Below are positions 988 through 34,000 of a stretch of 64,000 nucleotides of DNA, piece after piece. Each line of letters starts with the position of its first letter. Position 1 is the stretch's first letter. Location: NCBI GenBank assembly GCA_044892525.1, contig CM097885.1, forward strand, positions 17,052,001 to 17,116,000. Direction: 5' to 3'. The DNA comes from Schmidtea polychroa. Lineage: Eukaryota. The translations under genes and the position numbers were made by a program. The notes below the pieces were generated by a model. The model was not told the origin of the DNA. It saw only the letters and a program-made list of their open reading frames with translations, and ran no database searches.

Positions 988-3900
988 ATGTCTGATAAGA
1001 ATAAAAAAAGAAAATTTGAAGATGAAAACAGACAATTTCAAATTGAATGGGAAAATTTATATTTTTACACGCAGGTGAAGGAAAACGCTATATGTTTAAT
1101 TTGTCGTCAATCTACCTCAATATTAAAATCATATAATTTGAGACGACATTTTGAACAAAAACATGATGATTATAAAAAATATACTAAAGACGAACGAAAA
1201 GTGAAATTAGATACACTTAAAGCAAATCTGAACGCAGAACGAAATATATTTCATAAACAAACAATTCAATCTAATGCCATCGTTAATGCCAGCATGCGAA
1301 TATCACACATTATTGGGAAAAAATGAAGCCCTTTTCAGATGGTCAATACATCAAAGAATGCCTTATTACTGCAGTTGAAGAAATTATTCCAGAAAAAGTT
1401 AAGATTTTTGGTCAAATCAGTCTATCACATCAAACTTTATCACGAAGAATTGATAACAATTCAACTGATATTTGTTCTACGCTGGACATGGTTTCTAAAG
1501 AGTTTGTTTATTTCTCACTGGCTTTGGATGAGACAACAGATATTAAAGACACTGCATAACTTGCTATTTTTATTCGAGGTGTTAATAGTGAAATGAGTGT
1601 AACTGAATAACTTCTGGAAGTTATGAGTTTGAAAGGCACAACTACCGGAAAAAATATACAAAAAGCTGTCGTAATGTTGGGCTGAAAACGAGAACTGAGA
1701 GTTTGTTTTAATCGATCGAAAATACCTAACACAAAAACCGCAAAGTTGAAAAAAATTTATGACCAAGGTTTAATTTAAAAATAAATAAAATAAACTACAT
1801 CACACATTAAGAATCAATAAACCCCGTATAATAGAATAAAGAGATAAATAAATTTAACAGAAAATTCAACACTTAAAAATTTAAATAGAAAAATAATAAA
1901 ATATAAAATGGAATTAGTCGAAAATTATTTAAACAATATAAAAATTAAATCGTCAAAAATAATAAAATTAATTAGCATTATGTAAATTGTAAAGTTTATA
2001 GAATTAAATGGTTATTTAACTTATTAAATTTAAAGAATAAAAATGTTTAAATTAATAAAAATTAATATAACTCAAATTAGTTAAAGTATAAAATTTGTAA
2101 AATTAAAATTAATAAAAATTAAATAAGAAATTAATTAAATTTATGAAATTAAAACAAATAAATAATTACACACATTCATGCATGTGTGCAAAATCAATTC
2201 AATAATTCTCGCACTCTGATTGGATAGAGTACGCATTCAAAATCAGTATAAATACTGATCACAAATTCAATTGAAAAACTCTCTTTTTCAACATAGCCAC
2301 TTAATTTGCAGAACTCTCAGTTTCGATTTTATGTCAACGTGGATGTGGTAAATTATTTGTTATTGTTTTTGTAATTCTTATGAAGTATTTTAATTAATAA
2401 ATTTTATATGTCTCAGTTAAATTTTCTTTAGTAAATTTTTTAATGGTTTAAATTCGTTTAGTTTCAAGTTCTAAATCATAGTTTTATTGAATTCAATCAT
2501 ATTATTTGTTGATGGTGTCGATGGTCTGGGCTGGGGAAAAGTTTGTGGACGGGCGGCACTACGTGCTGTTGGTCGGCAGATATTTCGCCGGTTGAGTCCA
2601 TCGAGTTAGAGGACAGTCATAGTGATAGGAATGATTAGGGAGTGTAATGTCATTTTAGGTCGTTTAGGATTTTATTTAGATTTAGATAATGTAGGTGGCT
2701 TAGTCACCTTTATGTTTTATAGACATAAGTGAGTTAGGAGTAAAGATGGAATAGTTGAGACCAGTTGAAGATGGATAAAGTTAGATTTATGTAATTTTTC
2801 CGACAGCTCAGGATTAGAAACACAGGCAGATCCCTGCTCAAAATCTCTGAAGAACAATTTAAATATTATGGCAAGTGTGGATTAACTTGAAAATAAGGGC
2901 CAATCCCTGCGCAAATTTTTCAAAGGATAATTTAAATATTGTAGGAAGTGTAGAACAATAATTACTAGCTGGGAAATAAGGACGGATCCCTGCACAAAAT
3001 TTTATAAGAGAACAATTAGAAATACCCGTAATTGAGGACCAACAACGATCCAAAAATAGCATATATAGTGAATAAGGACGTAAGACCTTCTATCGGCAGT
3101 CTAGAACCCGAAAAGAAAATCCAATGGGGACTAGTTTTAGTAATAGAACTCACCTGCTCATTGTTTTTTCACCTTTGTGTACAGTACCAACATGGTCGTC
3201 GCCATGGGTACACAAATGGTTTAAATTGCAATAGTCATGGAGGTGCTTAGGAAAGAGTCGAACGATTATGATTACCCCTAACGTATTTTAAATTGTAAAA
3301 AGGACACACCCCTAAGTAACCAACAGTAAAATGCACACAACATCATGGTCCTAATTTAGCAAACCTAATTGGAATCGCCACAGATGGTGCAGCCTCAATG
3401 ATCGGTAAAAATATTGGAGCCGTAAAATTAATTCTTGATTATAGAAATGCCATGGAAAAAGCTTCATTATCTCCTGACCTTTTTATTTGTCACTGTTTTT
3501 TACACCTTGAGAATTTATGTGCGCAAGTATTTGATATGAACCACGTGATGTCAGTCGTTATTAAAACAGTTAACGCAATAAAAAATAATTCCTTGAAACA
3601 TCGTCAGTTTCAAGATTACCTTCAAGAACTAGAATCTGAGTACAGTGATTTGCTTTTTTATGCGAAAATTCGCTGGTTAAGTCGCGGGAAATTTTTAGAA
3701 AGATTTTGGAATTTGAGAGAAGAGATTGGAATTTTTATGAATGAAAATGACCAAAATGTTCCTGAATTATATGATGAGCAGTGGCTTTTGGATTTATGTT
3801 TCCTTACAGATATTACTATGAAATTAAACGAACTAAATAGGCAGCTTCAAGGTGAAAACAAGTTGATCACAGACTGTTATGGAAATATAAAAGCATTCAT

Positions 3901-6580: not shown

Positions 6581-7194
6581 AAAATATTATTAAATCATGT
6601 ATCACATTGTAACAACTGACAAACTGATAAACCCGACAAATGTAGTAATCAACAAATCACTTATAAAATTTTTATTATTAATCAAACTGATTACTCACCA
6701 AATTCCAAAAGAAATAAATTCAAATTTAATAATTTTGATTTAATTAAACAAAAAAACCTTATTAAAAATTCATAAAAATAAATTATACAAATTGGTTCTA
6801 GCTTTTGAGATTATTTTATTTTTTAAAGAAAACAATTTTTATAATGGGTTTTTGCGAAGAATTAATCACCAGATCTGATGTAAATTATGTTTGAGTTATG
6901 CAGATTAGTACAAATAAAACATACAAAAATATATTAGTATAAAATGAGCTACCCTACGTACCCCTCTTCAAGGTCATTTAAAATCAAATAATTTTGTTTT
7001 AATCAGCATTCGCGTCTTATATTTTAATTTTTTAAAGAACTTTCAATGTATGTATATTTGAAATTAATTTCTCGTTTTAATGGAGTAATATTTTTAATTT
7101 CGCGAGTAATATAAATAATTTTAATATACCTTTTTAAAAGTCATCCCCCCCCCAAATTCAAACTGGTTTTTATCTCATTTTAAGTATAACCATA

Positions 7195-7620
7195 TAGGCA
7201 GAATTTAATTCTCTATAAAATAGCTTGATTATAAATGTTAAATGTTGTGTTGTGTGTGCTACATACATGTTTTCTTGTATAATTTGGCCTTTCTACCTAT
7301 TAACATTGTTGTTATTGAGTTTTAACTTTAATAAAATATAGATGAATTTTAATTCTCCGTAATATGGTTTTATTTGAAATTTAAAATGTTTTTTAGTATA
7401 TGCTTTACACATGTTTTGTTTTAAATTTTTAATCTTTTATCTAGTTGAAATAAATTTATTGAGTTTTCAATGTAACAATGTATAAATGAAGTCTAATTCT
7501 CTATAAATTGGTTCGATAAAGATTTGAAATTAAGCGTTGTGCATATTTCTCATAGTTAAAATGATTTTATTGAGATTTTACTGTAACAATTTATTGATGA
7601 AATTTAATTCTCTACAATAT
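7195..7620. repeat. Degenerate ~145-bp tandem repeat (about 3 units)
   Basis: AATTCTC-containing motif (AATTTAATTCTCTATAAAAT-like) recurs at ~7202, ~7345, ~7490 and ~7600, with ACATGTTTT recurring in the first two units. Confidence 0.55.
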
Positions 7621-9332
7621 GCATAGAAGAATTAATTCCCAAAAGAAGAGGTATAGGCCTTTTAAATTAAAAATTTTAAATACGAGTACAACAAAGTAGA
7701 GATATGACGGGCGCAAATACACATAGATTGAATAAAGTATATTTATTCAAGAGTCCTATGAATTAATATGTGTACATATATGCACATTTAGACCAAAAAT
7801 TCTTTTTTAATTAAATTATGCTCATTAATCATTAAAAATGTAAGAGTCTAAATAGTATTCAATCATTTACAAACTTGCCTTAATTTATTCATTCATACAA
7901 GCATTTAAATTCAAGGGAAAACGTGAAATGATAAATAAAATTGAAAAATATCGGTGGTGAATGTAATATGCTTTATTTTTGTAATTTTGGCTAATAATAA
8001 ATTAATACTCACAGATTTCTTCCTCCGACCGGATCTTCAGGAGAATCATTGACGAAAAAGAAATTAAAACTCCAAAATTAATTAAAATAAAATAAAAATT
8101 CTACGGAATGAATTATTTACCAATTTGCAATAAAATTTTCGACAAAATAAAAATAGGATTTAATCCCGAAAAAGATATATGAAAAAATCAGTTTTATAAA
8201 TTTTATATTAAATATCATTGTTCCAAGTAATTTTCATATTCATATAATTTTTTTTCCAAATTCAAAAAGCCGTAAAAATTTCAAGTTTTAAACACCACTT
8301 TGACTGGTTAACGTGTTTGTAAGTGTGAGTGTGGCACCAAAACTTAATAAAACGCATTGTCATATATAATGAATCTATAAGATGGATGGAAGTGAGTTGA
8401 CCCTTCCAGATATACATAAAAATTTTTGATTTTTTTATATTATCCAGTGGAACTCAGTGTAATAAATAATAATTGTTAAGAATCCCTAGCCTAAAAGTTT
8501 CTAAAATTAGGCTTAATTTATAATAGGATATTTTTCTGAAGACAAATAGTAACTCTTTATCCTGGTGGTACCAACCGGATCCCATTGAAGTATTAGCTTT
8601 TACCCATTCAAAAATAATTATTAATTTTATTTGAATCTTATTTAAATTATTTTACAATAGTCAGAAAAACAAAAAATATATTTAAAAACATTAGAGAAAT
8701 AAATTTGAAAATGAATCTAAAATTGGACATAACTCTAGCAATAAATTGTTTATATCTTAATCCTGCTGATAATTCAGAAAGGAATCCCACAATTACGAGC
8801 GCAGAGATGTCAAAATTATATAAAAATCGTGACATGATTTCATTAAAAACTAAAAAAAAATTACTACTTGAAAAAATCGAAAATTTTAAATTATTTTTAT
8901 TTTATCACTAAAATTTTATTTTTTTAATATATTTATTTGATTTACTTTGCTAATAAATGCAACTTAATAAATTTTATTAAATAATAGTTTATAATGCGAA
9001 AGTAATTAATTTAATTTAAATTTTCCATTAGAAGATAAATGTGTGTGGAAATACGAAATACCAGAGATAAGTTAACCTCCACTCTGTGCATTTGGGTCAA
9101 ATGGATCCCAGTCAGATGCGGATTTACTCTTGAGGGGCCCAAGCCTAAAAATTTTATGGGGCCTGTAGTAAACTGTTATTTTTTATTGTATTTATTATTC
9201 ATAACAAAATCCAAATTAGCCTTTTTTGATTACTATAGTAAATTATCGCTTTAGTAAAATTAAAAATCAAAAAGAATATCTATAAAAAAACATTAAAGAA
9301 AATTTCAAAAAAATTTTATCCAATTCAACCTA

Positions 9333-10587: not shown

Positions 10588-11399
10588 GTTCGATTGACCC
10601 TTATGCACAGACAATGGAAATTTTTCAATGCATAGATTTTAAGCAAAAATGACAAAACATCATGTACTAACTATTTAATTTAACAGTAATTTGTAAATGA
10701 TTGCTGGATGTGAATGTTTGTCGAATTAGTATTCTATATAAAGTTTCAAAATTGTTTGGTTTTAGATTATTCTTAGTCAATAAATAGTGAACATAAGGAA
10801 CCAGAGTCAACATTTTTGATCAAAATCACTCGAGAAACCAGTGCCCAAAATTCGTGAATATAAAAAAAAACATCCATATATTTACTGATTCATAGTCATG
10901 CTTTTTAATAATTACAATGTCAATTGAAAAAAAAATCAGTGGTGAAATTTGAGAAAAAGTTCTTATAATATTAAACACTGTTAAGAGCAACAGTGGGGTA
11001 AAGTTTTCTGAAACAAATACTAAAACCATTTTACTCTTGATAATGTATTAGTTATATTTATTCGTATGTATCAAAGAATATTATTTTGTAAAATATAATT
11101 TTGGAATGTATTTCAACATCTCCGCTGTCATCATCGGGCACTAAACAACTTCAATAAAAACGATTATACTGATAGGTTCATTAATAATTAATTAATTATA
11201 TGTTCGGAATTCAATTAAATTTAATAATCCTAATAAAATTTATTAAACACTTGAAAAATACACGTGTTTAATGCATTTTATTTATTAATTTCGAGTTAAA
11301 GGATTTTCTCCTCAAGATCTTACAAGTAATATGGGTCCAATAGTTTTTGAAACTCTTAGATAATACTTTAAAATAGGAAATTATATTTTAAACTTATAT

Positions 11400-11741
11400 A
11401 TCTATTCAGCACTGTACTATCGCAAGTGCAATCACCCCCAAATACATTAGAAAAACTTCTTCAATAGCAAAAATATATCACGAATTGAAAGAAAAAAACA
11501 AAAAGGAAAATTCAAAATTAGTTTAACTTTCAAAAAAATCTAGTTGAAAATACAACAGCCAGAACTATTGATTACAATGATATAATCGATGAATTTGCCA
11601 GCAAAGGAGCTAGAAATATTGTTTTATAATTTCTTTGTATTATTTTTTTTTAATTAAAATCAATAAAAATGAATGCAATAAAATTACAAAATTTTTTTTT
11701 AGTGTCTACACAGGGCCCTTGAAAGTTTTAGCATGGCACTG
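11400..11741 (+). mobile_element. 3' remnant of a hAT (Tip100-like) element
   Basis: Translation ...TARTIDYNDIIDEFASKGAR followed by GGGCCC...GCATGGCACTG, which resembles a terminus. Confidence 0.5.
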
Positions 11742-11759
11742 TGCCTATTATGCTCAATA

Positions 11760-11930
11760 ATATTACTGTTTCCACTAAATCTGAATAAACTACTAAAATG
11801 CTTTCGAACTCGTGTACAGTGATACCGAGAGGTTTTACCAATGAATGTTGAATTACACCCATAAAAAATAAAACGATATACGAAAATAAAACATAGATCA
11901 AACGGTGTCACAGATTTATTATTAAACATT
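11760..11930 (-). pseudogene. Penelope-like GIY-YIG endonuclease fragment
   Basis: VYRFIFYGCNSTFIGKTSRYHCTRVRKH resembles the VYxFxCxxCxxxYIGxTxRxLxxRxxEH pattern. Confidence 0.6.
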
Positions 11931-12129
11931 ATGCACTTTACAAGATTTTGGAATCATTTAACGTTAACACTTCCAATATTTTTTAGAATAACTTCTCTAA
12001 AGTTTTTAAACATCAGAAAACAGTAAAACTATCTAAGAACCAAATTCGGTACACAAATCATTTTCATTTATTTTATCAAACATAACATTACTACTATTAA
12101 TGTTATTCATTTGAGCATTATCAATCATA

Positions 12130-14104: not shown

Positions 14105-14149
14105 AAATAATAATAATAATAATAACAATAATAATAATAAAAAAAAAAA

Positions 14150-14239
<90 letters not shown>

Positions 14240-14248
14240 TATAATAAT
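14105..14248. repeat. (TAA)n microsatellite left of the Polinton-like element
   Basis: Directly visible. Confidence 0.95.
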
Positions 14249-14599
14249 ACAATAAAATGATAATTTAAGCCAGTTGGTAGTTAGAAGCGTACGGCAACAA
14301 TTGGGGGGGGTAAAAAATGTTGCAAACTTTTGATTGCATAATTTTTTCCGTAACCATTTTTGATTACATAATTGTTGCCGTACGCTCCAATGTTTTTTTT
14401 CTAGGATTTTAAATACAAAAAATATTTTTTCAATAAACAAGCCAAGGATAAATATTATTTGGGTGGGTCTCCTTGGTCCTGAGAATTTCAATACAAAAAG
14501 GCGGTCTTCAATAAAAAAGCATGGAATTTTCACACTATAGTGAGGGGGTCTCGATGGTCCTGAGAATTTCAATAGAAAAGGTGGTTTACATTAAAAACG

Positions 14600-15050
14600 C
14601 ATAGTAAATTTTTAAAATAAAGCAAATTATGGGTCTAAAATTTAAAAATAAAGTAAATTATGGGTCTAAAAAATTAAATTTAAGTAAATCAAGGTTCAGA
14701 TTTTTTTTTTGAATTAAAGTAAATTATGGGCCTAAAAATTGAATTACAGTAAATTATGGGCTAAGATTTTTGAATTAAAGTAATGAATGGGCTCAACTAA
14801 GTAAATTAAGGTTCAAATTTTTAAATTAAAGTAAATAATGGTTCGAAATTCAAAATTAAAGTTAATTAAGGGCTCAACTAAGTAAATTAAGGTTCAAATT
14901 TTTAAATTAAAGTAAATAATGGTTCTAAAAAATTAAAATAAAGTAAATTAAGGTCCTAAATAATTAATTAAAGTAATGAATGGGCACAAATAACTAAATT
15001 AAGGTTCTAAAAAATTAAATTAATTAAGTTAATTAAGGTCCAAATTTTAA
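14600..15050. repeat. Subterminal ~30-bp tandem repeats of the left arm (mirrored at ~26400-26850)
   Basis: Recurring AAGTAAATTA(T/A)GG.. units. Confidence 0.8.
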
Positions 15051-15389
15051 AATTAAGTAATCAATGGTAAAAAATTAAAGTTAAATAAGTAAATTAAAGT
15101 AAGATTTTTAAATTTATTAACAAAATAATAGTAGGTGTTTGAGAATTGAAATTTTTTAATGAAAATTTTTATGAAATAATAATAATAATAATAATAAAAA
15201 TAATAATAATATATCAACCAAATACTATACAACACATAAAAAATTAACTAAACACATAAAAATAACTAGACACATAACAAAACATATAAACATTAACTAA
15301 ACACATAAAAATGAACTAGACATATAACAAACATAAAAATTTACCAAACAAATAACAAATGTAAAGATATAAACTTTTATTTAATAAAA

Positions 15390-18300
15390 TTAGTCCTCAT
15401 CAGACAAAATAACGTCATCGATATCGATATCATCTTCTCCAAAATCTTCTCCAACATCTTCATTAAATTCTTCCTCATCTTCTCCAACATTTTCATTAAA
15501 TTCTTCCTCATCTTCTCCAACATTTTCATCATTTTCTTCTCCAACAATTTCTCCAATATTTAATTCACTTAATCTTACATGCCCATATGCAAGACTAGTA
15601 TTTTTCCCCACCCAAACCCTTTTGTCATCTTTGTTAGTTAGTGCTATTTTTGTATATTATTTTAGTCTGAGGAACCGAAAAAATCTGGTTAGTGTTATAA
15701 CAATCCAGGTATGACTGATGTTTTATGTCACTACCTTTCAATGTTACACCTTTAGCCTTTTTTGTTTCCCCATCACCCAACAAGCTATAACATTTAGGTC
15801 TAAGAAAAACCCATTCCTTATATTTTAGACCCTTATTCTCGTCTTTGAACTTTCCAATGACAGAATCAAGGTTCTTACTATATAAGGAATGACAACTATT
15901 GTAATTGGAAGTATCTAATAAATTATCTCGAATCATTGCAGGTAAAAGAACCTCAAGTTTACAGTTAATGACTTCGAGGAAAAAAGAATCTGTATCACCT
16001 GCAACGATATTAATTTTACAATTAAACTCATTGCGAAATGATTCTAAATCCTTATATATTGTAATTCATACATTCTGAGTTTAGATAGATCAAGTACAGA
16101 TTGACCAATGTAACTTGGTCTATCTAAACATATAGAATCTGAATTCAATAATGCTGCAATTAAATTATCGTCTATTTTAATAGATTTTTTAAAAGTCGGC
16201 TTTGAAGAATATTTAACTAAATTACCGGCAGTTGTACAAAGACGAAGATTCATTCTTTTTAAATTTTCAACTGTTTTGCCGTATAAACTGTTATTTAACA
16301 ATTTATAATAATTTTTATCTAAATTATTTATGCTTTTTGACCTTAATTCTGTATTAGTATCTATATATTTTTTAAAAATTGGAGATTGCTTAAATCTTAC
16401 ACCCCTATTTACACGTGTTACTTTAACACCAAGTTCCAAATATAATTTTAATAATCTCCAATGAATCACATAATTAGATTTTGGAAGATGAGTTAATAAT
16501 AATTTTTCAACCTTAGACCCAGCAGGTTTCATTTTTTCAGCAGCTACAGGGAAATCATCCAACTTATCATGAAGCTCAGAAGGAATTACAAGATCAACTT
16601 CAAGAGTGTATCCATAAGACAAGGATTCAAGATTTAAATTCCTACATTCATCCATTATTAAATCAAATCCATCAAGAACCCAACTAAATTCACCACAAGG
16701 TAATGATTGACTTAAAGCCCAACCATAAAGATTATTAATATCTATATAAAGTAACTCGGTGTTCTCATCGGTTTTTACGTAATGCTTATTCACAAAAGTA
16801 AGACCGCCTCTTATTCCACCCTCATAAAAGCTAAACATTTCGTTTTCAGTTATGAGCTCAATTGGTTCATCTAAAGACATTAATGCAGAAGACCAAGACA
16901 TACCAGGTATTCCGAAATAATTCAATGGTTCCAATCTATTGTGAGCAATAGATTTCAACCGAAACTGATGAAAGAAATCAGCCAAAAGAAAACAATCGAG
17001 TTTTAAGTAGATCATCATATAATCTAATAAAGTTACGCAATTAGATTCTACCCAAATCTCCTGAGCTTTTTCATACTCAAGCTCAGTGACACCTTCCCAG
17101 ATTGGTGGTAATTCATAAGTAGTTTGGAGAATATCTAAAGATGTAGCGAAATTATAAGGGAAGATTCCTTTTTCAGAAACTATAGTGCCAGAAAAAACAG
17201 AATTAGTAAAAGGCAAAGAATTCAAAGTTTTGACTGCTTTAGCTAAAGAATCATTAACAATTTGATAAGAATCAATAAACCTTAAACTAATTTTTCCTAA
17301 ATGCGCAATCAAAGAAATAAATTTTTCAGTCGTTATTGGGATGCAACCTAAAGTCCAATTTTTAAATTTATTTAAACCATATTTAAGTATATGGTGCATA
17401 TCGTATCCCTTCAAGTTGTGAAATACGATAGGCAAAATTTTATTTATTTTCCTATTTATGTTACATGTGCTACAAGCTGCACCCAAGTATTTCCCCGTAA
17501 AATGATCGTGATCTCTAACAGGATCGACGATAGATTTCATACAAAGATAACAAACAGATGCACTAACAAATTGACGTTGTTCAATTTTTGTTAATTTCAT
17601 CATAGGTTTCCTACCCATTTTATAATAAAAAGGAAGAACCTTATTTAATGCTATATCCTCTATAGCACTTAAAAAAACTCTCGACGCAATCTAAATCTAT
17701 GAACTGTTGATAAGATTTAGATCCGTCAAAGTTATTTACAAGTAAAAGACCAGCAGATATTGGCATGTGTCGTTGGAAATGAACATTATCAGAAGGTAAA
17801 ATAGCCTCAAAATCGGCATAAACTACAAAAGGAGGAGTTACTGTTTTCGACCAGTCAGTAAACTGCAATAATTTATTTTGAGGGAAGGTGTAAAGAGTTG
17901 TTCCTAATTGATTACGTTTACATAATATTTCATGTTTGTCCAGTGCGTTTCTATTTTTAAAACCATTCAAACAACGATGGCACCATAATGATTGTATGCG
18001 TGTAGGACAACTAGTGTTGATACCACAATTCAGTAACCTATTTAAATTACTTATAGCAACGTAATGGAAATTGTTTCCTTTATTTAATAGTAGTAAATTA
18101 ATTATAGTTCCATTTAAAACTTTGGAACGATGTATAATATCTAAATGTGGATGTTTTAATACATAATTATCAGTTAATTGTTTGCTATTATCATATGAAA
18201 AAACATTAATTATTAAACCCGGATTTTTAGATTCAAATTTCCTAATGTCTTTTAATTTCATAGGTAATTCTAACGGGTTGTATACTAAGTCAGATAAATT

Positions 18301-19897
18301 ATAACTTGATGTCCTATTCCTATATTGTGTAATAACTTCATCATATTTTAAAATAGCTAAAATACTATATAAAATCCATGAATCATCAGTGTTTTTTATA
18401 TTAATTAAACAATATTTATTTTTTAGATAAGTAGGTGTTTCAATGAAACTCCTACCACTTAATCTACTTAACCTACTTATTTTTGTTATGGTGAAATGTA
18501 TTTCAGTAATATTTTTAATATTCCAACTGCTTCCTAACTCGGTAATATTAGTAATTTTCTCATTTAATTCCTTAATGCCTTCATCAAAAAATGATGCAGT
18601 TAAAGGCTTTGCATAATTTGAGATATTATTAACTTTTATTTCCCCGTCTTTTTCAAATTCGATTGTTATTCCGAATTGAATTTTGACGGAGCCTAATTCG
18701 TTAATAATATCTCGTAATTTTATTATTAGTTGTTCAGGAAATATTATTTCTTTTATATTTAAGTCGCTAGTATTTAAGCTTAATATTTGATGGGTACCTC
18801 TTAAATCTCTTTGTACTGTTGGTACATTTCCACCTATTTGTATTATATTTAATCCATCCCAAGAATCAAAGGAAGTGAATAATCCATCATTGGATTCAAC
18901 AACCAATCCGACCTGGGATTCAACAAAAGGCAATCCGACCTGGGATTCAACAACCAATCCATCATTGGATTCAACAAAAGGCAATCCGACCTGGGATTCA
19001 ACAAAAGACAATCCGTCCTGGGATTCAACAACCAATCCATCATAGGATTCAACAAAAGGCAATCCGACCTGGGATTCAACAAAAGACAATCCGTCCAGGG
19101 ATTCAACAACCAATCCATCAATGGATTCAACCTCTAATCCAACCTGGGATTCAAAAGAAGAAGTATCTAATTTAATTTTTTTATTTGTATTATTTTTTTC
19201 TATAGTCGAGGGTCTTTTAAAAACGCTATCTTTTTTAAAATTAAACCTATCTAAATGATTTTTATGTTTATTATAAAAAACGCTATATGTTACAGGGTCA
19301 CTAGTCTTACATACAGGACATATAAAATAAGTTTTATTATAATATTTTTTCGTGTAATAATTCTCCATTATAGAATGGCAATTATTATCATGTTCTTTCG
19401 ATGAACAGTAATTTGGATAAAGTATACCTATAAAATAAAAATTTAATAAAAAAAAATATAATTTAAATGAAATATTTTAATAAATGTTTACGCAAAAATT
19501 TGCAAATTATTATTATTTTACAAATTTTATTTACTAAAAAATAAAAATTTACTAAATTAAAAATATTAACATTTACTTAAATAAAAAATTATATTAAATT
19601 TCCTTTAAATTATAAAAAGTAATCAATACTTACATTGTAAATTTTCATTTCGATTATTTGACACATTGACATAATTTTTCTCTTTATTTGTATTACCTAA
19701 ATTATTAATTAATTAAATCAATAAATTAAAAATTATGTTTACTTTTTCTTTTCAAATTTCCTTTAATCTTCGATTTTAAATTGTCTTCATTAATATTATC
19801 TAAATTAATTAATAAATTAATTAATAAATAAATTAAAATTACCAAATTCCTGAATTTTTTCTCGGACATTCATAACGTTTTCTATTAAAGAATTCAT
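15390..19897 (-). pseudogene. polB: Protein-primed family B DNA polymerase (pPolB), left-arm copy, frameshifted
   Basis: Mirror of the right-arm copy. ORFs 17641-19368, 16044-17618, 15634-15936 and 15390-15611, plus predicted 5' exons up to 19897. Confidence 0.9.
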
Positions 19898-20380
19898 TTT
19901 TATAGGTTAATTATTTGTTAAATGTGACTAATGATTGATTATTGTTTATAGATTATTATTTTTTATAGATTATTATTGTTTATAGGAACAAATTCTTACC
20001 AATGAAAATCAAGGAAGGGTAGGAAAAATAAATGTATTACGTTGCAGTATTTTAAAACTTCAATATATTTTAAAACACATTTTGACGCTAAAGTTGACTT
20101 ATTTAACATTTTCATAATAATTTAATAAAAAATAATGTGATGAACCCACAAAGTAATATCATTTTTCATCAAATTGCAAAACAGTAATAACGTTTTCATA
20201 AAATTGTAACAAAGTAATAACATATTTCAGATAAATTTTCAACAGTTGTAAAATATTTAAGCAAATTGTAACAAGATTAGAAAATATTACAACAAAGTAG
20301 TAACATATTTCAGAAAATTTCAACAAAGTTGTAAAATATTTATCAAATTGTAACTAAAATAATAAAAATATTGCAACAAA

Positions 20381-21070
20381 AATTAAAAAAAAAATTTAAT
20401 TCTCTACAAAATGGCTCAATTACAATTTTAGTTTGTCGCTTTGTGTGTATACACACATGTTTTTACGATAAATTTGTATTTTTCGCGCGGTTAACGTAAT
20501 TTTCTTGGATTTTTATTCATATATTATATAGATAAAATTTCATTTCCTATAAAATAGCTTGATTAAAAATTATGTCTCGTATGATGTGTGTAATACACAC
20601 ATGTTTTTACGATAAATTTGTATTTTTCATACAGGTAACGTAATTTTCTTAGGATTTTATTCATATAATATATAGATAAAATTTAATTTTCTATAAAATG
20701 GATTGATTAGAAATTATGTATCTTGTTTTGTGTGTAATACACACATGTTTTATGATAAATTTGTATTTATTATACGTTAACGTAATTTCCTTGGATATTT
20801 ATTCATATATTATATAGATAAAATTTAATTTTCAATAAAATGGATTGATCTAGAGTTTAAAATGTTGTATTATTTTATTACTTTGTTGCAATATTTTTAT
20901 AATCTTATAACAATTTATTTTACATCTGGTGAAATATTTCCGAAATATGTTATTACTTTGTTGTAATTTACTGAAAGACTTCACAATTTATTACAATATT
21001 CTTTTTAATTTGTTGTCCGTCTTCGAAATAATGTATTGATTTGTCCCAATTAACATCATTATTTTATTAC
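20381..21070. repeat. Non-palindromic central spacer with 3 copies of a ~144-bp repeat plus degenerate TATTACTTTGTTG repeats
   Basis: ACACACATGTTTT at ~20451, ~20595 and ~20739. Symmetry breaks at 20380/21071. Confidence 0.85.
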
Positions 21071-21553
21071 TTTGTTGCAATATTTTTATTATTTTAGTTA
21101 CAATTTGATAAATATTTTACAACTTTGTTGAAATTTTCTGAAATATGTTACTACTTTGTTGTAATATTTTCTAATCTTGTTACAATTTGCTTAAATATTT
21201 TACAACTGTTGAAAATTTATCTGAAATATGTTATTACTTTGTTACAATTTTATGAAAACGTTATTACTGTTTTGCAATTTGATGAAAAATGATATTACTT
21301 TGTGGGTTCATCACATTATTTTTTATTAAATTATTATGAAAATGTTAAATAAGTCAACTTTAGCGTCAAAATGTGTTTTAAAATATATTGAAGTTTTAAA
21401 ATACTGCAACGTAATGCATTTATTTTTCCTACCCTTCCTTGATTTTCATTGGTAAGAATTTGTTCCTATAAACAATAATAATCTATAAAAAATAATAATC
21501 TATAAACAATAATCAATCACTAGTCACATTTAACAAATAATTAACCTATAAAA

Positions 21554-24500
21554 ATGAATTCTTTAATAGAAAACGTTATGAATGTCCGAGAAAAAATTCA
21601 GGAATTTGGTAATTTTAATTAATTTATTAATTAATTTATTAATTAATTTAGATAATATTAATGAAGACAATTTAAAATCGAAGATTAAAGGAAATTTGAA
21701 AAGAAAAAGTAAACATAATTTTTAATTTATTGATTTAATTAATTAATAATTTAGGTAATACGAATAAAGAGAAAAATTATGTCAATGTGTCAAATAATCG
21801 AAATGAAAATTTACAATGTAAGTATTGATTACTTTTTATAATTTAAAGGAAATTTAATATAATTTTTTATTTAAGTAAATGTTAATATTTTTAATTTAGT
21901 AAATTTTTATTTTTTAGTAAATAAAATTTGTAAAATAATAATAATTTGCAAATTTTTGCGTAAACATTTATTAAAATATTTCATTTAAATTATATTTTTT
22001 TTTATTAAATTTTTATTTTATAGGTATACTTTATCCAAATTACTGTTCATCGAAAGAACATGATAATAATTGCCATTCTATAATGGAGAATTATTACACG
22101 AAAAAATATTATAATAAAACTTATTTTATATGTCCTGTATGTAAGACTAGTGACCCTGTAACATATAGCGTTTTTTATAATAAACATAAAAATCATTTAG
22201 ATAGGTTTAATTTTAAAAAAGATAGTGTTTTTAAAAGACCCTCGACTATAGAAAAAAATAATACAAATAAAAAAATTAAATTAGATACTTCTTCTTTTGA
22301 ATCCCAGGTTGGATTAGAGGTTGAATCCATTGATGGATTGGTTGTTGAATCCCTGGACGGATTGTCTTTTGTTGAATCCCAGGTCGGATTGCCTTTTGTT
22401 GAATCCTATGATGGATTGGTTGTTGAATCCCAGGACGGATTGTCTTTTGTTGAATCCCAGGTCGGATTGCCTTTTGTTGAATCCAATGATGGATTGGTTG
22501 TTGAATCCCAGGTCGGATTGCCTTTTGTTGAATCCCAGGTCGGATTGGTTGTTGAATCCAATGATGGATTATTCACTTCCTTTGATTCTTGGGATGGATT
22601 AAATATAATACAAATAGGTGGAAATGTACCAACAGTACAAAGAGATTTAAGAGGTACCCATCAAATATTAAGCTTAAATACTAGCGACTTAAATATAAAA
22701 GAAATAATATTTCCTGAACAACTAATAATAAAATTACGAGATATTATTAACGAATTAGGCTCCGTCAAAATTCAATTCGGAATAACAATCGAATTTGAAA
22801 AAGACGGGGAAATAAAAGTTAATAATATCTCAAATTATGCAAAGCCTTTAACTGCATCATTTTTTGATGAAGGCATTAAGGAATTAAATGAGAAAATTAC
22901 TAATATTACCGAGTTAGGAAGCAGTTGGAATATTAAAAATATTACTGAAATACATTTCACCATAACAAAAATAAGTAGGTTAAGTAGATTAAGTGGTAGG
23001 AGTTTCATTGAAACACCTACTTATCTAAAAAATAAATATTGTTTAATTAATATAAAAAACACTGATGATTCATGGATTTTATATAGTATTTTAGCTATTT
23101 TAAAATATGATGAAGTTATTACACAATATAGGAATAGGACATCAAGTTATAATTTATCTGACTTAGTATACAACCCGTTAGAATTACCTATGAAATTAAA
23201 AGACATTAGGAAATTTGAATCTAAAAATCCGGGTTTAATAATTAATGTTTTTTCATATGATAATAGCAAACAATTAACTGATAATTATGTATTAAAACAT
23301 CCACATTTAGATATTATACATCGTTCCAAAGTTTTAAATGGAACTATAATTAATTTACTACTATTAAATAAAGGAAACAATTTCCATTACGTTGCTATAA
23401 GTAATTTAAATAGGTTACTGAATTGTGGTATCAACACTAGTTGTCCTACACGCATACAATCATTATGGTGCCATCGTTGTTTGAATGGTTTTAAAAATAG
23501 AAACGCACTGGACAAACATGAAATATTATGTAAACGTAATCAATTAGGAACAACTCTTTACACCTTCCCTCAAAATAAATTATTGCAGTTTACTGACTGG
23601 TCGAAAACAGTAACTCCTCCTTTTGTAGTTTATGCCGATTTTGAGGCTATTTTACCTTCTGATAATGTTCATTTCCAACGACACATGCCAATATCTGCTG
23701 GTCTTTTACTTGTAAATAACTTTGACGGATCTAAATCTTATCAACAGTTCATAGATTTAGATTGCGTCGAGAGTTTTTTTAAGTGCTATAGAGGATATAG
23801 CATTAAATAAGGTTCTTCCTTTTTATTATAAAATGGGTAGGAAACCTATGATGAAATTAACAAAAATTGAACAACGTCAATTTGTTAGTGCATCTGTTTG
23901 TTATCTTTGTATGAAATCTATCGTCGATCCTGTTAGAGATCACGATCATTTTACGGGGAAATACTTGGGTGCAGCTTGTAGCACATGTAACATAAATAGG
24001 AAAATAAATAAAATTTTGCCTATCGTATTTCACAACTTGAAGGGATACGATATGCACCATATACTTAAATATGGTTTAAATAAATTTAAAAATTGGACTT
24101 TAGGTTGCATCCCAATAACGACTGAAAAATTTATTTCTTTGATTGCGCATTTAGGAAAAATTAGTTTAAGGTTTATTGATTCTTATCAAATTGTTAATGA
24201 TTCTTTAGCTAAAGCAGTCAAAACTTTGAATTCTTTGCCTTTTACTAATTCTGTTTTTTCTGGCACTATAGTTTCTGAAAAAGGAATCTTCCCTTATAAT
24301 TTCGCTACATCTTTAGATATTCTCCAAACTACTTATGAATTACCACCAATCTGGGAAGGTGTCACTGAGCTTGAGTATGAAAAAGCTCAGGAGATTTGGG
24401 TAGAATCTAATTGCGTAACTTTATTAGATTATATGATGATCTACTTAAAACTCGATTGTTTTCTTTTGGCTGATTTCTTTCATCAGTTTCGGTTGAAATC

Positions 24501-26061
24501 TATTGCTCACAATAGATTGGAACCATTGAATTATTTCGGAATACCTGGTATGTCTTGGTCTTCTGCATTAATGTCTTTAGATGAACCAATTGAGCTCATA
24601 ACTGAAAACGAAATGTTTAGCTTTTATGAGGGTGGAATAAGAGGCGGTCTTACTTTTGTGAATAAGCATTACGTAAAAACCGATGAGAACACCGAGTTAC
24701 TTTATATAGATATTAATAATCTTTATGGTTGGGCTTTAAGTCAATCATTACCTTGTGGTGAATTTAGTTGGGTTCTTGATGGATTTGATTTAATAATGGA
24801 TGAATGTAGGAATTTAAATCTTGAATCCTTGTCTTATGGATACACTCTTGAAGTTGATCTTGTAATTCCTTCTGAGCTTCATGATAAGTTGGATGATTTC
24901 CCTGTAGCTGCTGAAAAAATGAAACCTGCTGGGTCTAAGGTTGAAAAATTATTATTAACTCATCTTCCAAAATCTAATTATGTGATTCATTGGAGATTAT
25001 TAAAATTATATTTGGAACTTGGTGTTAAAGTAACACGTGTAAATAGGGGTGTAAGATTTAAGCAATCTCCAATTTTTAAAAAATATATAGATACTAATAC
25101 AGAATTAAGGTCAAAAAGCATAAATAATTTAGATAAAAATTATTATAAATTGTTAAATAACAGTTTATACGGCAAAACAGTTGAAAATTTAAAAAGAATG
25201 AATCTTCGTCTTTGTACAACTGCCGGTAATTTAGTTAAATATTCTTCAAAGCCGACTTTTAAAAAATCTATTAAAATAGACGATAATTTAATTGCAGCAT
25301 TATTGAATTCAGATTCTATATGTTTAGATAGACCAAGTTACATTGGTCAATCTGTACTTGATCTATCTAAACTCAGAATGTATGAATTACAATATATAAG
25401 GATTTAGAATCATTTCGCAATGAGTTTAATTGTAAAATTAATATCGTTGCAGGTGATACAGATTCTTTTTTCCTCGAAGTCATTAACTGTAAACTTGAGG
25501 TTCTTTTACCTGCAATGATTCGAGATAATTTATTAGATACTTCCAATTACAATAGTTGTCATTCCTTATATAGTAAGAACCTTGATTCTGTCATTGGAAA
25601 GTTCAAAGACGAGAATAAGGGTCTAAAATATAAGGAATGGGTTTTTCTTAGACCTAAATGTTATAGCTTGTTGGGTGATGGGGAAACAAAAAAGGCTAAA
25701 GGTGTAACATTGAAAGGTAGTGACATAAAACATCAGTCATACCTGGATTGTTATAACACTAACCAGATTTTTTCGGTTCCTCAGACTAAAATAATATACA
25801 AAAATAGCACTAACTAACAAAGATGACAAAAGGGTTTGGGTGGGGAAAAATACTAGTCTTGCATATGGGCATGTAAGATTAAGTGAATTAAATATTGGAG
25901 AAATTGTTGGAGAAGAAAATGATGAAAATGTTGGAGAAGATGAGGAAGAATTTAATGAAAATGTTGGAGAAGATGAGGAAGAATTTAATGAAGATGTTGG
26001 AGAAGATTTTGGAGAAGATGATATCGATATCGATGACGTTATTTTGTCTGATGAGGACTAA
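21554..26061 (+). pseudogene. polB: Protein-primed family B DNA polymerase (pPolB), right-arm copy, frameshifted
   Basis: N-terminal region: INIKNTDD and HY (vOTU-like), zinc finger CHRC...HEILC. Exonuclease region: ExoI YADFE, endonuclease-VII-like CYLC...DHDHFTGKYLGAACSTCN, ExoII FHNLKGYD. Polymerase region: motif A DINNLYGWA, motif B KLLNNSLYGK, motif C GDTDS at 25452-25466 (outside the ORF track), RPKCY, KAKGV and DDKR...AYGH. Confidence 0.92.
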
Positions 26062-27189
26062 TTTTATTAAATAAAAGTTTATATCTTTACATTTGTTATT
26101 TGTTTGGTAAATTTTTATGTTTGTTATATGTCTAGTTCATTTTTATGTGTTTAGTTAATGTTTATATGTTTTGTTATGTGTCTAGTTATTTTTATGTGTT
26201 TAGTTAATTTTTTATGTGTTGTATAGTATTTGGTTGATATATTATTATTATTTTTATTATTATTATTATTATTATTTCATAAAAATTTTCATTAAAAAAT
26301 TTCAATTCTCAAACACCTACTATTATTTTGTTAATAAATTTAAAAATCTTACTTTAATTTACTTATTTAACTTTAATTTTTTACCATTGATTACTTAATT
26401 TTAAAATTTGGACCTTAATTAACTTAATTAATTTAATTTTTTAGAACCTTAATTTAGTTATTTGTGCCCATTCATTACTTTAATTAATTATTTAGGACCT
26501 TAATTTACTTTATTTTAATTTTTTAGAACCATTATTTACTTTAATTTAAAAATTTGAACCTTAATTTACTTAGTTGAGCCCTTAATTAACTTTAATTTTG
26601 AATTTCGAACCATTATTTACTTTAATTTAAAAATTTGAACCTTAATTTACTTAGTTGAGCCCATTCATTATTTTAATTCAAAAATCTTAGCCCATAATTT
26701 ACTGTAATTCAATTTTTAGGCCCATAATTTACTTTAATTCAAAAAAAAAATCTGAACCTTGATTTACTTAAATTTAATTTTTTAGACCCATAATTTACTT
26801 TATTTTTAAATTTTAGACCCATAATTTGCTTTATTTTAAAAATTTACTATGCGTTTTTAATGTAAACCACCTTTTCTATTGAAATTCTCAGGACCATCGA
26901 GACCCCCTCACTATAGTGTGAAAATTCCATGCTTTTTTATTGAAGACCGCCTTTTTGTATTGAAATTCTCAGGACCAAGGAGACCCACCCAAATAATATT
27001 TATCCTTGGCTTGTTTATTGAAAAAAATTTTTTTATATTTAAAATCCCAGAAAAAAACATTGGCAACAATTATGTAATCAAAAATGTCTACGGAAAAAAT
27101 TATGCAATTGTTGCCGTACGCTACTAACTACCTACTTAAGCCTTTTGCTGCAAATAATGTATATAATGAAAAAATTTTCGACTATAAGA

Positions 27190-27386
<197 letters not shown>

Positions 27387-28734
27387 TTAATTAATTTTTA
27401 TTTTGTTTAGATTGCAGCTGTAATACGCATAGATGTAAATAAATAATGCATAGAAAATTGTTCAGGTGCTTGTTCTCAAATTCAATTTACCTTTCTGTAA
27501 TGATTCAGTTTCAAGTTGGAAAATAAAATATGAAAGCTGAAAAAATTTTAAATTAATAACTTAAGAATAACATTTATAAAGGGAGAAACTATATGAAAAA
27601 AGAAAAAATCAAAGTGGTGAATAATAATTAGTCTAGCAATAAATGGAGAAGCTGAAAATACGTTCTGATATCCGAAATATTCACGTGAAATTGCATTGTA
27701 AATCAGCAAATCTATTCAAAGTATTCAAGCACGCTATTCTCATCATTTCATGTTTTTCCGAGTGCCAAAAAAATATTTAATTGTCCGCACTGCCCAATTG
27801 TTTTGCTTGTAGATTGCAGGTGGGAAAATTTGAAAAATTGAATTTTACGAAGATTCGTCTATTAAAAAGAAATAAATTTGCTATTTCTTTACGATTTTTT
27901 GTGAAATTTTCTTTTAATAAACGGCAGAGCAAATTTCATATTTTATATAAACAAATAATTAATTAAATCAATCTAATATTTTTGGTAAATTTTAAATGGA
28001 TCTTCATATGTAAAATCGGAGTCAACCAACTCTCGAAACCTGCAGAATTTGCATTAGGAACCGAAATATTTCCAACTAGATTATTTACTCATTTGACGCG
28101 AAATACTGCCATTGGACAATGATCACCAACATATGAAGGTTGGATGCATTTAATAAAATCATCTTCAACACCTCCAACCCATGGCACAATTATATATACT
28201 AAATTTAAGGTGAGGAATGTATCTAATCTGCTTCCATATATCAGTTGATATAAAGCCAAGAAATGTTGCGCAATAAGTTAGCTTTCTATTAACTTGAATA
28301 AAGATAGATTCATCTCCTGCGGATAAAGGAATATTTGTCATGCTTATTATTTCATTAATTCCTTCGAGAGCTTTTTAAAAATTTATGACTTGAATTTTCA
28401 TAGAATAAAAAGACTTGAATAATAATTCAAAATTAATTCCTTGATCTATATTAATTATGTTAATTATGGATCGCATTTGTGTGAGGGTGGATTATTGATT
28501 GTATTTGCTTGTTGGGTGCGCACACAGACGCGAGGCAATGTTTTCAATTTGTTTTGGAATTTTTCGATTCATGCTTTGGAATTTACAATTTGAGGTTTCT
28601 CTTATAGTTTGTTTGGTCGGATTAATTATTTGATTCTTTTTGGTTTTAAAGGAGTTTTTGTGGAAGAGTTTTTGAAAAAAAAAGAATTTTCTCAAGTGGT
28701 TTTGAAATTTTAATGAAATTTATGATGGCTTGAA

Positions 28735-29095
28735 GATGTGACAATCCTATAACTATTTTTTCTCAGGACGACTTATATCCAATCGTCTATATCCAATTCA
28801 GTCAGGACATTTATATATTATATCCAATTGAATATTCAATGGAAGATGGTTATTCTGGTACTTATTTCGAAATATTTACGATATTTCATGTGCAGTGACT
28901 GGAATTCTGTTTTGTCAGATCAGATGAGATTAAATGCCCAACGTTATTTGTTAACTTCGCAAGAGCCAATTCCAGTTGATCAATTGGCTACACAGATCTG
29001 TGATTTAATCCATACTTATACTATGAACGATGATCTTGAGGCTATTTATAGCCGTATGATGAAATGCGATGTGGATATTCGAGAGGATTTATATA
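28735..29095 (+). pseudogene. Degenerate proteasome alpha subunit (PSMA4/alpha3-like) fragments joined to a short actin-like fragment
   Basis: DNPITIFSQD...YPIEYSMED and RLNAQRYLLTSQEPIPVDQLATQICD resemble proteasome alpha-3. MKCDVDIREDLY resembles actin MKCDVDIRKDLY. Confidence 0.7.
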
Positions 29096-30345
29096 CGATG
29101 ACAATGAGGAATCAACACATATCATATCCCTTGATAAATGCATCAGAATTTCATAATAATTATTGTAAAAATAATAATAATTAATATCATAATAAGAGGC
29201 ACGAGTTTTCCGTGCTATTTTTATTTGAAATCCTCACTAAGAATTCCCTGAATTAAGTTTATTTATAATTGAAAAAATGAGGGAAAAAAATAATAATAAG
29301 AAATTCCGGTAAAATAATTTGATTTATTCCTAATAAAAGTGCATAGTGAAAAAATAATTTCAAGAAGCCAAAAAAATTTGTTTGTGAAGGATTTATTTCG
29401 ATATTATTTCGAAATTAAATTTCGAAGTTATCAGAGTTGATTAAAAGATTAACGTCAGAGGATAAATCAAGTTATATGTCAAGGCTGAAGGAATTTGAAT
29501 ATATAATGACCATTTGACATGACTATTATAGATCAAATCAAGGACGTCATTTTTTAAGAACTAATGATGATGATGAAGACATAAAGTTGATCTAGGGCTC
29601 GACCATCTCTTATAGAGAAATTGCGCATTCGTTAGTTTTCTTTAACAGATGATGGAGCTTCGATATATTTTGAATTGCTGGAATCATTCGTGATGTATTG
29701 GAGGTAGAAGATGATGTATACTCTGACTGAAGCAACTTTCATCTACCGGGTAGACAATACCAGCAACATCCAATTTTACACGAAAGGATTGAAAGTGCTT
29801 TAAACGCATTCTTCGCAAATTCATACATAATGCACAATGTGATTTGAAAGTTTTGTTAAAGAATAGTGTTCTTCAATGAACTTAGATATATTACGTTATA
29901 CACAAATAAAGGCGCGAACAATAAATTCGCAGATAAATCTATATTGAATCGTGAATAAAGTATTTATAACTAAATTCTGAAAAAGGCATATAGTGATTTA
30001 ATAAAGATATATGGACTAAGTGGAGATATTTCCTTTTTTATCTGCGCTTTTATTGTCCGTGCCGTTTAATTATTATTATATTTAATATGTCATTTAAATC
30101 AAATCTAGTTGATTCCAATAAAGACTCAGTTCTAATAAATAGGTGTTTGTCCTTTATTTTAATATCGACGTACCAAGACATAAGAATATTAGATGAATAG
30201 CAGAATAATTGTTTTTTATTTTATTCTTGAAAAAATCTAAAATTTCTTCGCTTGTTGACTGTTAAGGTTTAAATAATTAAATAATTGTGGGTACTACGAA
30301 TTCATGCTTTTCTTGATTGAAAGTTGCCAAACGCATTGACTAAAT

Positions 30346-31075: not shown

Positions 31076-34000
31076 TGTAGAGACATACAATTAATTCGAA
31101 TAAAGATTTTATTCAAATTAACATTGCTATAAATAATTGTTATATCTTCTCCAATAGTCAATATACCAACGAAAGCACGAACACTTGATCTGGAGATTGT
31201 TGAAGATCTTGACCATCATCAGAGAGATCATTGGTAATAAGACGAAGGTTTCTGTTTCTTCGTCGTATTCAAGGGTGCAAAAGGCTGGTTTTAATCTGGA
31301 AAGGTTGATCATGACGTGGTTGTTGTCAATATTGAGTTTCGCCATATTTTTGTACAGCTCTATGATGCGAAACGGACCTTTGAATCTGGGTTTGTTTGAA
31401 AAGTCGATAGTTCTCATCCATGCGTCAGTTGTGGAGGAAAATGACTGTGTGTATATATGGTTTGTACGACGTGGAATATGTGAACGACGGATTAGTATTT
31501 AAGCTCAAAAATGCTTTCGTGTTAGATTGATCTCGTCTAATGGTGAGTCATTGTAAAGATCAATAAGTTCATTGGGCATGAAAGTGTTGGATCCAAACAA
31601 AAGTTGTGAAGGAGACACCCCGCTTGAACGATTGGGTGTATTGTGCCATCCTAGTAAAACAAATGGTAACGCTTAGACCCATAAAGTTGAAGTTGAGAGT
31701 TTTCTGAGAGATGCTTTTAAAATCCGATGAGAGCATTCGACGAGACCGTTTGTTTGCGGATGGTAAGAGATGGTTCTTAAGTGTTTTATTCCGAGGCTGG
31801 ATGTAAGATGTTCAAAAAGATCCGATTCAAATTGCGCATCTTGGTCAGTGATGATAGAGGTTGAAATTCCATAACGTGAAAACCAGGTAGATGCTAAAGC
31901 TTGTGCGACCGTGTGAGCAGTGATGTCACGAACAGGAACGGTCTCAAACCATCGTGTTTTCCGATCAATCATTGTCAAGATGTAACAAAATCCGTCGTCT
32001 ACTGGTAGTTTACCGACTAGGTCAATGTGAAGTGTGTTGAATCTCGAACCCGTTGGGAAAGGAGTGATTGGTGGTTTAGTGTGTCGGTTCACTTTGTGTT
32101 GTTGGCAGCTTTCTCATTCAACCACCCACATTTTTACATCTTTGAAAAATGAGAACCATGTGACATTTTGGCGTAGGAGATGGTATGTGGACTTAATTCC
32201 TGGATGGTGCTAGTTGTAAATGGCGAGAAATGCTTCTTTTCGAAGCGAAGAGTGTAGGATTGGTCTGAGAGTGTTTTTATACATTGTATCATAATGTATA
32301 CCGTCTATTGTCTGTAGCGAGTCTTTGAAATGGACAAGATCTTCTGATGTCGGTGGGGTTGAACGGAGAACATCTTGAGTAATTATTGGGGTTGATGAGA
32401 TAGATGCTGAAATGTTTCTGGAAAGATAGTCAGCGATTACATTATCTTTACCGGACACATGGGCGAACTTAATGTCGAAAGATGATAGGTATGTTATCTG
32501 ACGATGTACCTTGTTTGATGGGTCTTTCATGGTGAGGCAGTGGATAAGAGGTTTGTGATCAGTGAATACTGAATTGTCTACCTTCTTAAATGTGACCAAA
32601 ATGCTTTACAGCTAGAAAAATAGCAAGTACTTCTCTGTCGAATGCACTGTACTTTGACTCTGCCGATGAAAATTTCTAGGGAAAAATTCTATTGGGAGTG
32701 AAACATTGTCTTTAATTTGATGAAGGACTGCGCCGGCGGTGATATTTGATGCATCTCTTGTGAGAGTGTATGGGAGGCCATGATTCGGGTAGTTGTAATC
32801 TTGGATAGAGCGTCTTTGACTGTGTTGAATGCATCACTTGTTGTATCGGACCAGTTAATGGTGAAGTTTTTCTTTCCTTTGTTCAGTGCTGAAAGAGGTG
32901 CCGTTATGTGTGATGCGTTTTTTATGAATCTGTGACAGAAAGTTACGATGCCGAAAATGCTACGTAGTTGTGTTAAGGTGGCGGGTTATGGAAAGCTGCG
33001 GATTACATTAAGTCGTTCAGGAAAAGGTTCGCAACCCGTAGATGAGACTATGTGACCAAGGAGTCTGGCGCGTTTTTGAAAGAAATTGCATTTATTTACA
33101 TTGATTTGTAAGTTATAACGGTTCAATATGTCAAGAACAGTGTGTAGGTCCTTGTTGGGGTGTCACGCTCGGGTGATGCTACGATTATATCGTCGATGTA
33201 TGCAAAAGCGTGGTGAATGTCCTGGAAAAGTGTGTCCATGAAGCGTTGTAAAGACTGAGCTGCATTCCTTAACCCGAAAGGCATGAACATGTATTCAAAA
33301 TTTTCAAATTGTGTGGTTACAGCGGTTGTGGGAACGTCATCGATATGTACAGGAAACTCATGGTAGGCTTTCGAGAGGTCAATAGTTGAAAATATGGTGG
33401 ATTCTGAAAAGCGGTTATTATATCTTTGATAAGTGGCATTGGGTATGCATCGTGAACGGTCACTTGATTGAGTTGACGGTAGTCGCCGCACGGCCTGAGT
33501 GAACCGTTTTGTATTGGTGACGTCCATGAAGATGAAGAACGGTGTATAATGCCTGCATTCTCTAGACTGATGATTTTGGCTTTAATTGAGTCGAGTTGGA
33601 TGGGTGGGAGCGGTCTGGCTCGGTTGTGTTGTGGTATGCACGGTAATGTCGGAATATAATGAGTCGATAGAGTTGTATGTGGTATGATAAGGATTTTGTG
33701 ATGAGGTTTGAGTATGTGGTTATGTCGTGCATTGGCTCTGAATTAGGTGAGTGTTGGATATTTGACATGTGTTTATTGCGTTCTATCGTGTCAGTAGATT
33801 GAATAAAACTGAGTTGGGTTGTCGGAGATGTCTGCGTAGAGATTGATGTTCTGTTTGGTGATACATTTGTGGATATAGGATTGAGATGTAGGATTAAAGT
33901 GAATAGTAGTCGATTTTTCCAGTCTATCATGAAAGATTGTTCGCTGACGAAATCGGAGCCTAGTATTAAATGAATTGTGTCTGCTATGTGGAAATTGCGA

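Follow-up and report, generated by a model that had tools for sequence, protein, structure and literature searches.

A 12.9-kb Polinton-derived palindrome with a broken polymerase gene in each arm

Snap-back (copy-back) defective genomes, including adenovirus derivatives, carry the same end twice, on either side of a short loop, and are helper-dependent. Polintons are defined by a DNA polymerase B that is protein-primed (pPolB), to which the terminal protein is fused, together with integrase, protease, ATPase, and capsid genes (10.1101/2024.03.18.585575). In vertebrates, the corresponding Mavericks have terminal inverted repeats (TIRs) of 46–1,447 bp, target-site duplications (TSDs) of 6 bp, and lengths of 12.7–24.6 kb, and 96% of the loci are degraded (PMC8097293). 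Butterfly polintons have TIRs of ~2 kb that duplicate the hexon and adenain genes, and copies without polB are inferred to be mobile (10.1101/2025.02.07.637071). TIR expansion by gene conversion is also known from linear mitochondrial DNAs and plasmids, where inward growth duplicates genes, including pieces of a DNA polymerase (PMC3673629). In Caenorhabditis elegans, remnants comprising a TIR and pPolB without integrase occur at 10 loci, and Polinton TIRs have been implicated in chromosomal rearrangements and inversions (10.1101/2024.01.15.575659). Furthermore, short inverted repeats seed large palindromes and conversion acts on Y palindromes (review, PMC7999016), and template switching homogenizes the arms of short inverted repeats (PMC8604942). 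No Polinton with pPolB in both arms is reported in the open-licence literature searched; subscription papers, Repbase, and preprint supplements may hold one.

The locus described here lies in a window of 64,000 nucleotides from Schmidtea polychroa (GCA_044892525.1, contig CM097885.1), and the coordinates below are positions in this window unless a contig is named. It is a Polinton-derived element that is organized as a 12.9-kb palindrome and holds a broken pPolB in each arm. The element is a derivative and not an autonomous Polinton; rather than copying itself, it probably persists as a rearranged relic.

Boundaries and anatomy of the palindrome

The element occupies 14272–27136 (12,865 bp). 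On direct inspection, its left end at 14272 reads AGTTGGTAG and its right end at 27136 reads CTACCTACT; the termini are of the form AGT...ACT (AGTTGGTAG / AGTAGGTAG), and the doubled (AGT)2//(ACT)2 motif is absent. The hexamer TAAGCC directly abuts the element on both sides as a 6-bp TSD (14266–14271 and 27137–27142, forward strand), and a flank match of this length has a chance probability of ~6e-4 at the local composition. The termini and TSD claimed in a preliminary description of the window are confirmed at these positions.

Two inverted arms of 6.1 kb, i.e., TIRs of that length, were delimited by BLAST and global alignment at 14272–20377 and 21074–27136 and make up 95% of the element. The near-identity originally ascribed to them is reproduced by BLAST, in which 14333–20401 aligns with 27108–21048 at 99.5% over 6,071 columns. 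Each arm contains one pPolB with its 3′ end toward the terminus, so the two copies face outward in the divergent orientation first proposed. The spacer between the arms, initially put at 690 bp, is present and measures 696 bp by global alignment.

Except for AAT microsatellites, the two flanks show no relation to each other, which argues against a mirrored read, and the flank sequences have no second copy within the 64-kb window. Since the unrelated flanks also carry a direct TSD, a fold-back read artefact is unlikely, and there is a high probability that the palindromic structure is real. Long AAT arrays flank the element at 14106–14264 and 27189–27391, 1 and 46 bp beyond the TSDs, respectively.

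Several families of tandem repeats are arranged symmetrically. The 31-, 81-, and 49-bp subterminal repeats of the left arm (14605–15361) are mirrored at ~26090–26846, and the 83-bp repeats at its inner end (20208–20380, forward strand) are mirrored at 21060–21248. The spacer is not unique sequence and consists of a 144-bp tandem array and ~190 bp of the 83-bp repeat that also occurs in the arms. Its core (20391–20854, forward strand) comprises 3.2 copies of the 144-bp unit, with a small stem-loop in each full unit, and an extra degenerate block of 83-bp repeats (20869–21051, forward strand) is found on the right side only. Inside the 83-bp motif the left arm breaks off, and a few A-rich bases connect it to the array. 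The right arm continues into the spacer as one unbroken unit that includes the extra repeat block; the left arm is cut short. When eight non-coding pieces of the element were compared with the rest of the window, a clear homologue turned up for the 144-bp array alone, i.e., ~3 degenerate copies (65–75%, E 7e-13) at 7190–7627, and because this homologue lies outside the element, the unit is regarded as a dispersed repeat. An old relative of the element at 7–10 kb was considered and dropped, as the 144-bp array alone matched there.

The homologue of the spacer array in the host flank would suit an origin in which two polymerase-end fragments inserted head-to-head on either side of some host repeat sequence, the composite thereafter moving as one unit by way of its outer ends, and the unlike termini described below would follow from two donors. 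However, without the same conversion step, two donors whose ends differ by 5% would not have all lesions and a 99.97% identical gene in common, and the two arms end in one and the same repeat motif; such a composite is considered highly improbable.

The polymerase pseudogenes, the missing genes, and related loci

In each arm, the pPolB matches Pfam DNA_pol_B_2 (PF03175) with E 1e-31. The Polinton ancestry claimed at the outset is upheld. Its closest full-length relative, P0001 (1,242 aa), is 64% identical, and the best partial relatives are 66–68% identical; none of these protein relatives is a member of the same family, and an exact look-up of two ORF pieces in a sequence collection found neither. 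On alignment to P0001, the gene falls into four frame pieces separated by three breaks per arm. The left pseudogene (15490–19368, reverse strand) is broken near 17670, 16050, and 15650, and the right pseudogene (22083–25960, forward strand) has the same breaks near 23780, 25400, and 25800 and a single silent difference from the left. The surrounding sequence of each break is identical between the arms, and the third break additionally lacks ~9–10 codons found in relatives. Introns were rejected as the cause, because the alignments contain no extra sequence at the breaks. Two of the three breaks are located in simple-sequence runs, where assembly slips are possible in principle. The exonuclease and polymerase motifs are still present, and a 78-bp coding tandem repeat is located in the N-terminal part (18881–19131, reverse strand, mirrored at 22320–22570).

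Since the same three frame breaks are found in both arms, the element supplies no polymerase; judged from its reading frames, pPolB is dead in both. The earlier term "polymerase-only" goes too far, given that both copies carry these breaks. The lesions appear to predate the copying of the arm, because they are identical in the two arms and the third involves a loss of several codons. At columns conserved in at least 96% of relatives, pPolB deviates at 8 of 158, a rate reached by none of 51 relatives in a leave-one-out comparison; after trimming of the piece edges it deviates at 6 of 149, and at fully invariant columns at 2 of 112, and each of these rates is reached by 2 of the 51 relatives, which are kin of one another, two of the deviating sites being adjacent. 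Modest evidence is thereby provided for ~1% neutral decay of pPolB, as compared with 0.026% between the arms. Furthermore, zero in-frame stops were found in 3,108 pPolB bases, an outcome with a probability of 0.17 at 1% decay, 0.03 at 2%, and 0.01 at 2.6%, which would cap the decay at roughly 1.7%.

Apart from the pPolB pieces, the element contains no ATG-initiated ORF of at least 100 aa. The polymerase was the sole match in the element to the stop-to-stop ORFs of two related contigs, L001 and L004, and to 285 ORFs from 21 loci. A retroviral-like integrase is absent from the element, the integrases of L001 and L008 matching only outside it; a packaging ATPase is likewise absent, the L001 ATPase matching only at ~55 kb; and neither a cysteine protease nor major or minor capsid genes were found in the element with the same ORF sets. 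These searches with proteins of related elements bear out the lack of integrase, packaging ATPase, protease, and capsid genes noted in the preliminary description. A sigma-70 promoter scan gave a chance level (20 vs. 22) and is not relevant to this element.

The metagenome contig L001 carries a pPolB that is 54% identical to that of the element and has the same endonuclease-VII-like insert, an integrase (rve, E 1e-12), an A32-type ATPase, and a TBP-like gene (PF00352, E 5e-18, 11330–11779 of the contig). By contrast with the present element, it is a full Polinton with a single pPolB pointing inward. Several of its ORFs are, we assume, capsid-like, Pfam having given no such match. In L004, a capsid-like end is followed by a protease-like ORF (Peptidase_C5, E 5e-4, below the cut-off), a further gene, a non-coding gap, and a co-oriented pPolB. 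The orientation of pPolB relative to the capsid module is opposite in L001 and L004, implying that the polymerase cassette has inverted within this clade. Neither a second pPolB gene nor an inverted repeat of several kb occurs in any of the 21 loci (L001–L021); the maximum is a repeat of 1,184 bp at 83%, in short-read assemblies, which would collapse palindromes. The Polinton-like contig L014 has a 1.18-kb inverted repeat at 83% (2260–3424 and 10852–12034). L018 (1–6543) is a 6.5-kb contig with 239-bp TIRs (98%) and pPolB that looks like a linear plasmid, and none of the queries used (integrase, ATPase, capsid-like) matched it. In a scan of viral contigs, a single pPolB protein as query gave 0 of 13 candidates and an alignment as query gave 15 of 20, all at 27–37%; 10 viral-contig matches to a 16-base terminal motif had no wider similarity and were taken as chance.

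Sequencing runs were compared by shared words of 15300–21060, a measure that speaks to sequence content and not to junctions. At least half of the words were shared by 6 of the 17 listed runs (one organism, two studies), five of them at 0.53–0.55 and one at 0.75; eight of the listed runs, with shares below 0.2, were left out. A share of 0.53–0.55 fits a copy 0.9–2% from a related sequence if fully covered, or partial coverage.

Other features lie in the same window. A decayed fragment of a Polinton packaging ATPase is found at 54,920–55,130 (reverse strand; 54% to the L001 ATPase over 68 aa) and a broken TBP-like fragment at ~60,000–60,110 (forward strand; 59% over 22 aa to the L001 TBP-like gene, E 2e-4), and the two pieces suggest an old remnant of a TBP-carrying Polinton. 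Decayed LTR-retrotransposon-like regions with reverse transcriptase, gag zinc-knuckle, and integrase pieces occupy 31,560–33,930 (reverse strand) and 41,920–47,770 (forward strand). A Spin-doc zinc-finger ORF (988–1326), a proteasome-subunit fragment (28846–29184), and a DUF659 (hAT-like) ORF (57253–58002) are also present.

Divergence between the arms and the route to the palindrome

Divergence between the arms is concentrated at the ends. In the outer 153 bp, there are 8 substitutions (5.2%; 6 events if adjacent pairs are merged) and indels of 33, 9, and 1 bp, the ends differing as early as positions 4 and 14, and this corresponds to 0.7–4.3% per arm (95% range). The remaining 5,953 bp contain 6 substitutions in all: one in the next 1,066 bp, the silent change in the 3,878 bp of the polymerase (99.97% identical), and four in the 1,009 bp upstream of it. 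The step is sharp at ~14425 (terminal vs. interior, Fisher P 3e-10, with the boundary set after seeing the data), and at the inner arm edge there is no old zone beyond ~20 A-rich bases. The interior itself is uneven, since five of its six differences fall within the inner 1,153 bp (0.43% near the spacer vs. 0.02% in the middle) and a 4,444-bp stretch in mid-arm is identical (longest-gap P 0.002 under even scatter).

The left terminal zone (14272–14424, forward strand) contains a strong hairpin at ~14286–14390 (−28.9 kcal/mol, z −5.8, 0 of 200 shuffles). The right terminal zone (27027–27136, reverse strand), which is without the 33- and 9-bp stretches, has a weak hairpin (z −1.3, 20 of 200 shuffles). 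Both stretches are bounded by short direct repeats, and the right end has lost part of the terminal hairpin via two deletions.

Because a fresh fold-back would give identical termini, the arms were probably equalized after the ends and the gene had aged. Both ends look separately aged, the gene appears to have died ~1% ago, and the arm interiors seem to have been equalized much later; with no in-frame stop in its 3,108 bases, the gene looks younger than the terminal point estimate. Two origins had been offered for the palindrome at first reading, i.e., a fold-back genome carrying the same end twice and the replacement of one half by an inverted copy of the other. The ends are not identical copies of one genome end, with 8 substitutions and three indels in 153 bp, and the fold-back option fails in its simple recent form, given 5.2% and three indels at the ends vs. 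0.1% in the interior; for it to hold, the event must be old and conversion between the arms must have followed. The second option gives the best fit to the stepped divergence.

Tentatively, the favored reading is that, in an old integrated Polinton, an inverted copy of the polymerase half was substituted in situ for the left half, by steps reconstructed from the anatomy and divergence described above. A Polinton with short TIRs would have integrated and created the TAAGCC duplication, after which it would have aged by roughly 1–2% as its two TIRs drifted apart and pPolB broke. Replication or repair may then have left its template within the left TIR, ~150 bp from the end, and resumed on the right TIR, which is homologous. 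From there, ~6 kb would have been copied back across the dead pPolB up to the 83-bp repeats, and the copy would have been rejoined where the 144-bp array begins with A-rich sequence, so that the integrase and capsid half would have been deleted while both original outer ends and the TSD were retained. As the inner junction would be new, the sharp step at ~14425 and the lack of an old inner zone are expected. The layout of L004, from capsid-like end to co-oriented pPolB, is one that could give rise to such a product. However, a single event predicts even scatter in the interior, and the clustering of its differences near the spacer requires a second levelling, in which the middle 4.4 kb would have been made alike again, either by later conversion between the arms or by polishing of the assembly consensus. 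The decay signal, which weakens on trimming and at invariant columns, also counts against in-place replacement.

The two-level interior, which shows repeated levelling, can be read in favor of a different history, namely an extrachromosomal snap-back (copy-back) product of protein-primed strand-displacement replication, made while pPolB was intact and inserted by a helper integrase 1–2% ago, in which later arm-to-arm conversion spread the lesions and spared the outer 150 bp. The length of 12.9 kb falls at the lower edge of intact vertebrate Mavericks (12.7–24.6 kb; PMC8097293), and mobile polB-less polintons have been inferred (bioRxiv 10.1101/2025.02.07.637071). In this history, conversion must reach within ~20 bp of the inner junction yet stop 153 bp before the outer end, and one step more than in-place replacement is needed. 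In probability it comes close behind in-place replacement.

A more far-reaching proposal, which is considered unlikely, is that the locus is an old, aged member of a family of Polinton mini-replicons of the snap-back type, which keep only the terminal-protein/polymerase gene, in both arms. The displaced strand would fold into a ready duplex and permit self-replication, with integrase and capsid supplied by a helper. Such elements would bridge the gap from full Polintons to gene-less palindromic satellites.

In linear protein-primed genomes, panhandle repair is expected to equalize the ends first, as in the adenovirus model. The pattern here is the reverse, the ends being the most diverged, and the simplest history is an aged insertion followed by in-place inverted duplication. 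The same argument bears on the view that helper enzymes recently copied and integrated an already dead palindrome whose ends were unlike, and that the family is still mobile. A perfect TSD and arm interiors 99.9% alike would be accounted for; however, panhandle replication should equalize the very ends, which differ at positions 4 and 14 and of which the right has lost part of its hairpin, and recent mobilization is improbable.

The identity of the middle 4,444 bp, with the differences near anchoring sequence, is also what polishing would give, and two of the pPolB breaks lie in simple-sequence runs. An assembly artefact may accordingly be envisaged, in which the polymerase half was walked twice, two copies were mis-joined at the 144-bp array, or, in a milder form, polishing levelled the arm middles. 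By contrast, unrelated flanks with a direct 6-bp TSD (P ~6e-4) are unexpected from a fold-back read or a mis-join, six interior differences exist, and the third pPolB break is a multi-codon loss and not a homopolymer slip, so an artefact is given only a small chance.

Significance and comparison with known systems

One locus records three clocks, i.e., old ends, a dead gene, and young arms. Whichever route is right, the arms of a giant Polinton palindrome can be equalized after the death of the gene while the ends are left unequal, and arm identity is neither evidence of recent transposition nor proof of panhandle replication. Should the junction recur in further copies, the element would represent a polymerase-carrying intermediate toward gene-less palindromic satellites, and the long-proposed panhandle model of Polinton replication would become testable by comparison of copies; a lone dead relic would be a curiosity.

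The element resembles snap-back genomes and adenovirus derivatives in having one end in duplicate about a short loop and differs from them in both its unlike ends and its integration with a TSD, those genomes having identical ends and no such integration. It shares with Polintons and Mavericks pPolB, a 6-bp TSD, AGT...ACT ends, and a size within the intact range, whereas it departs from them in its 6.1-kb inverted repeats, its two broken pPolB copies, the loss of the core genes, and the absence of the doubled (AGT)2 motif. In the C. elegans pPolB-end remnants, no two-armed palindrome is described in the available portion of the source (10.1101/2024.01.15.575659). Linear mitochondrial DNAs and plasmids are free replicons in which 50–700 nt of a polymerase are duplicated (PMC3673629), whereas the present element is integrated, its whole gene is doubled, and its outermost ends are not equalized. 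Butterfly polintons are similar in that a TIR has expanded over a core gene to give two gene copies per insertion; they keep the core and double hexon and adenain, whereas here the polymerase is doubled, the core is gone, and the arms account for 95% of the element. The structure is unusual, but its polymerase is dead, a single locus is known, and expanded TIRs that contain genes have already been published.
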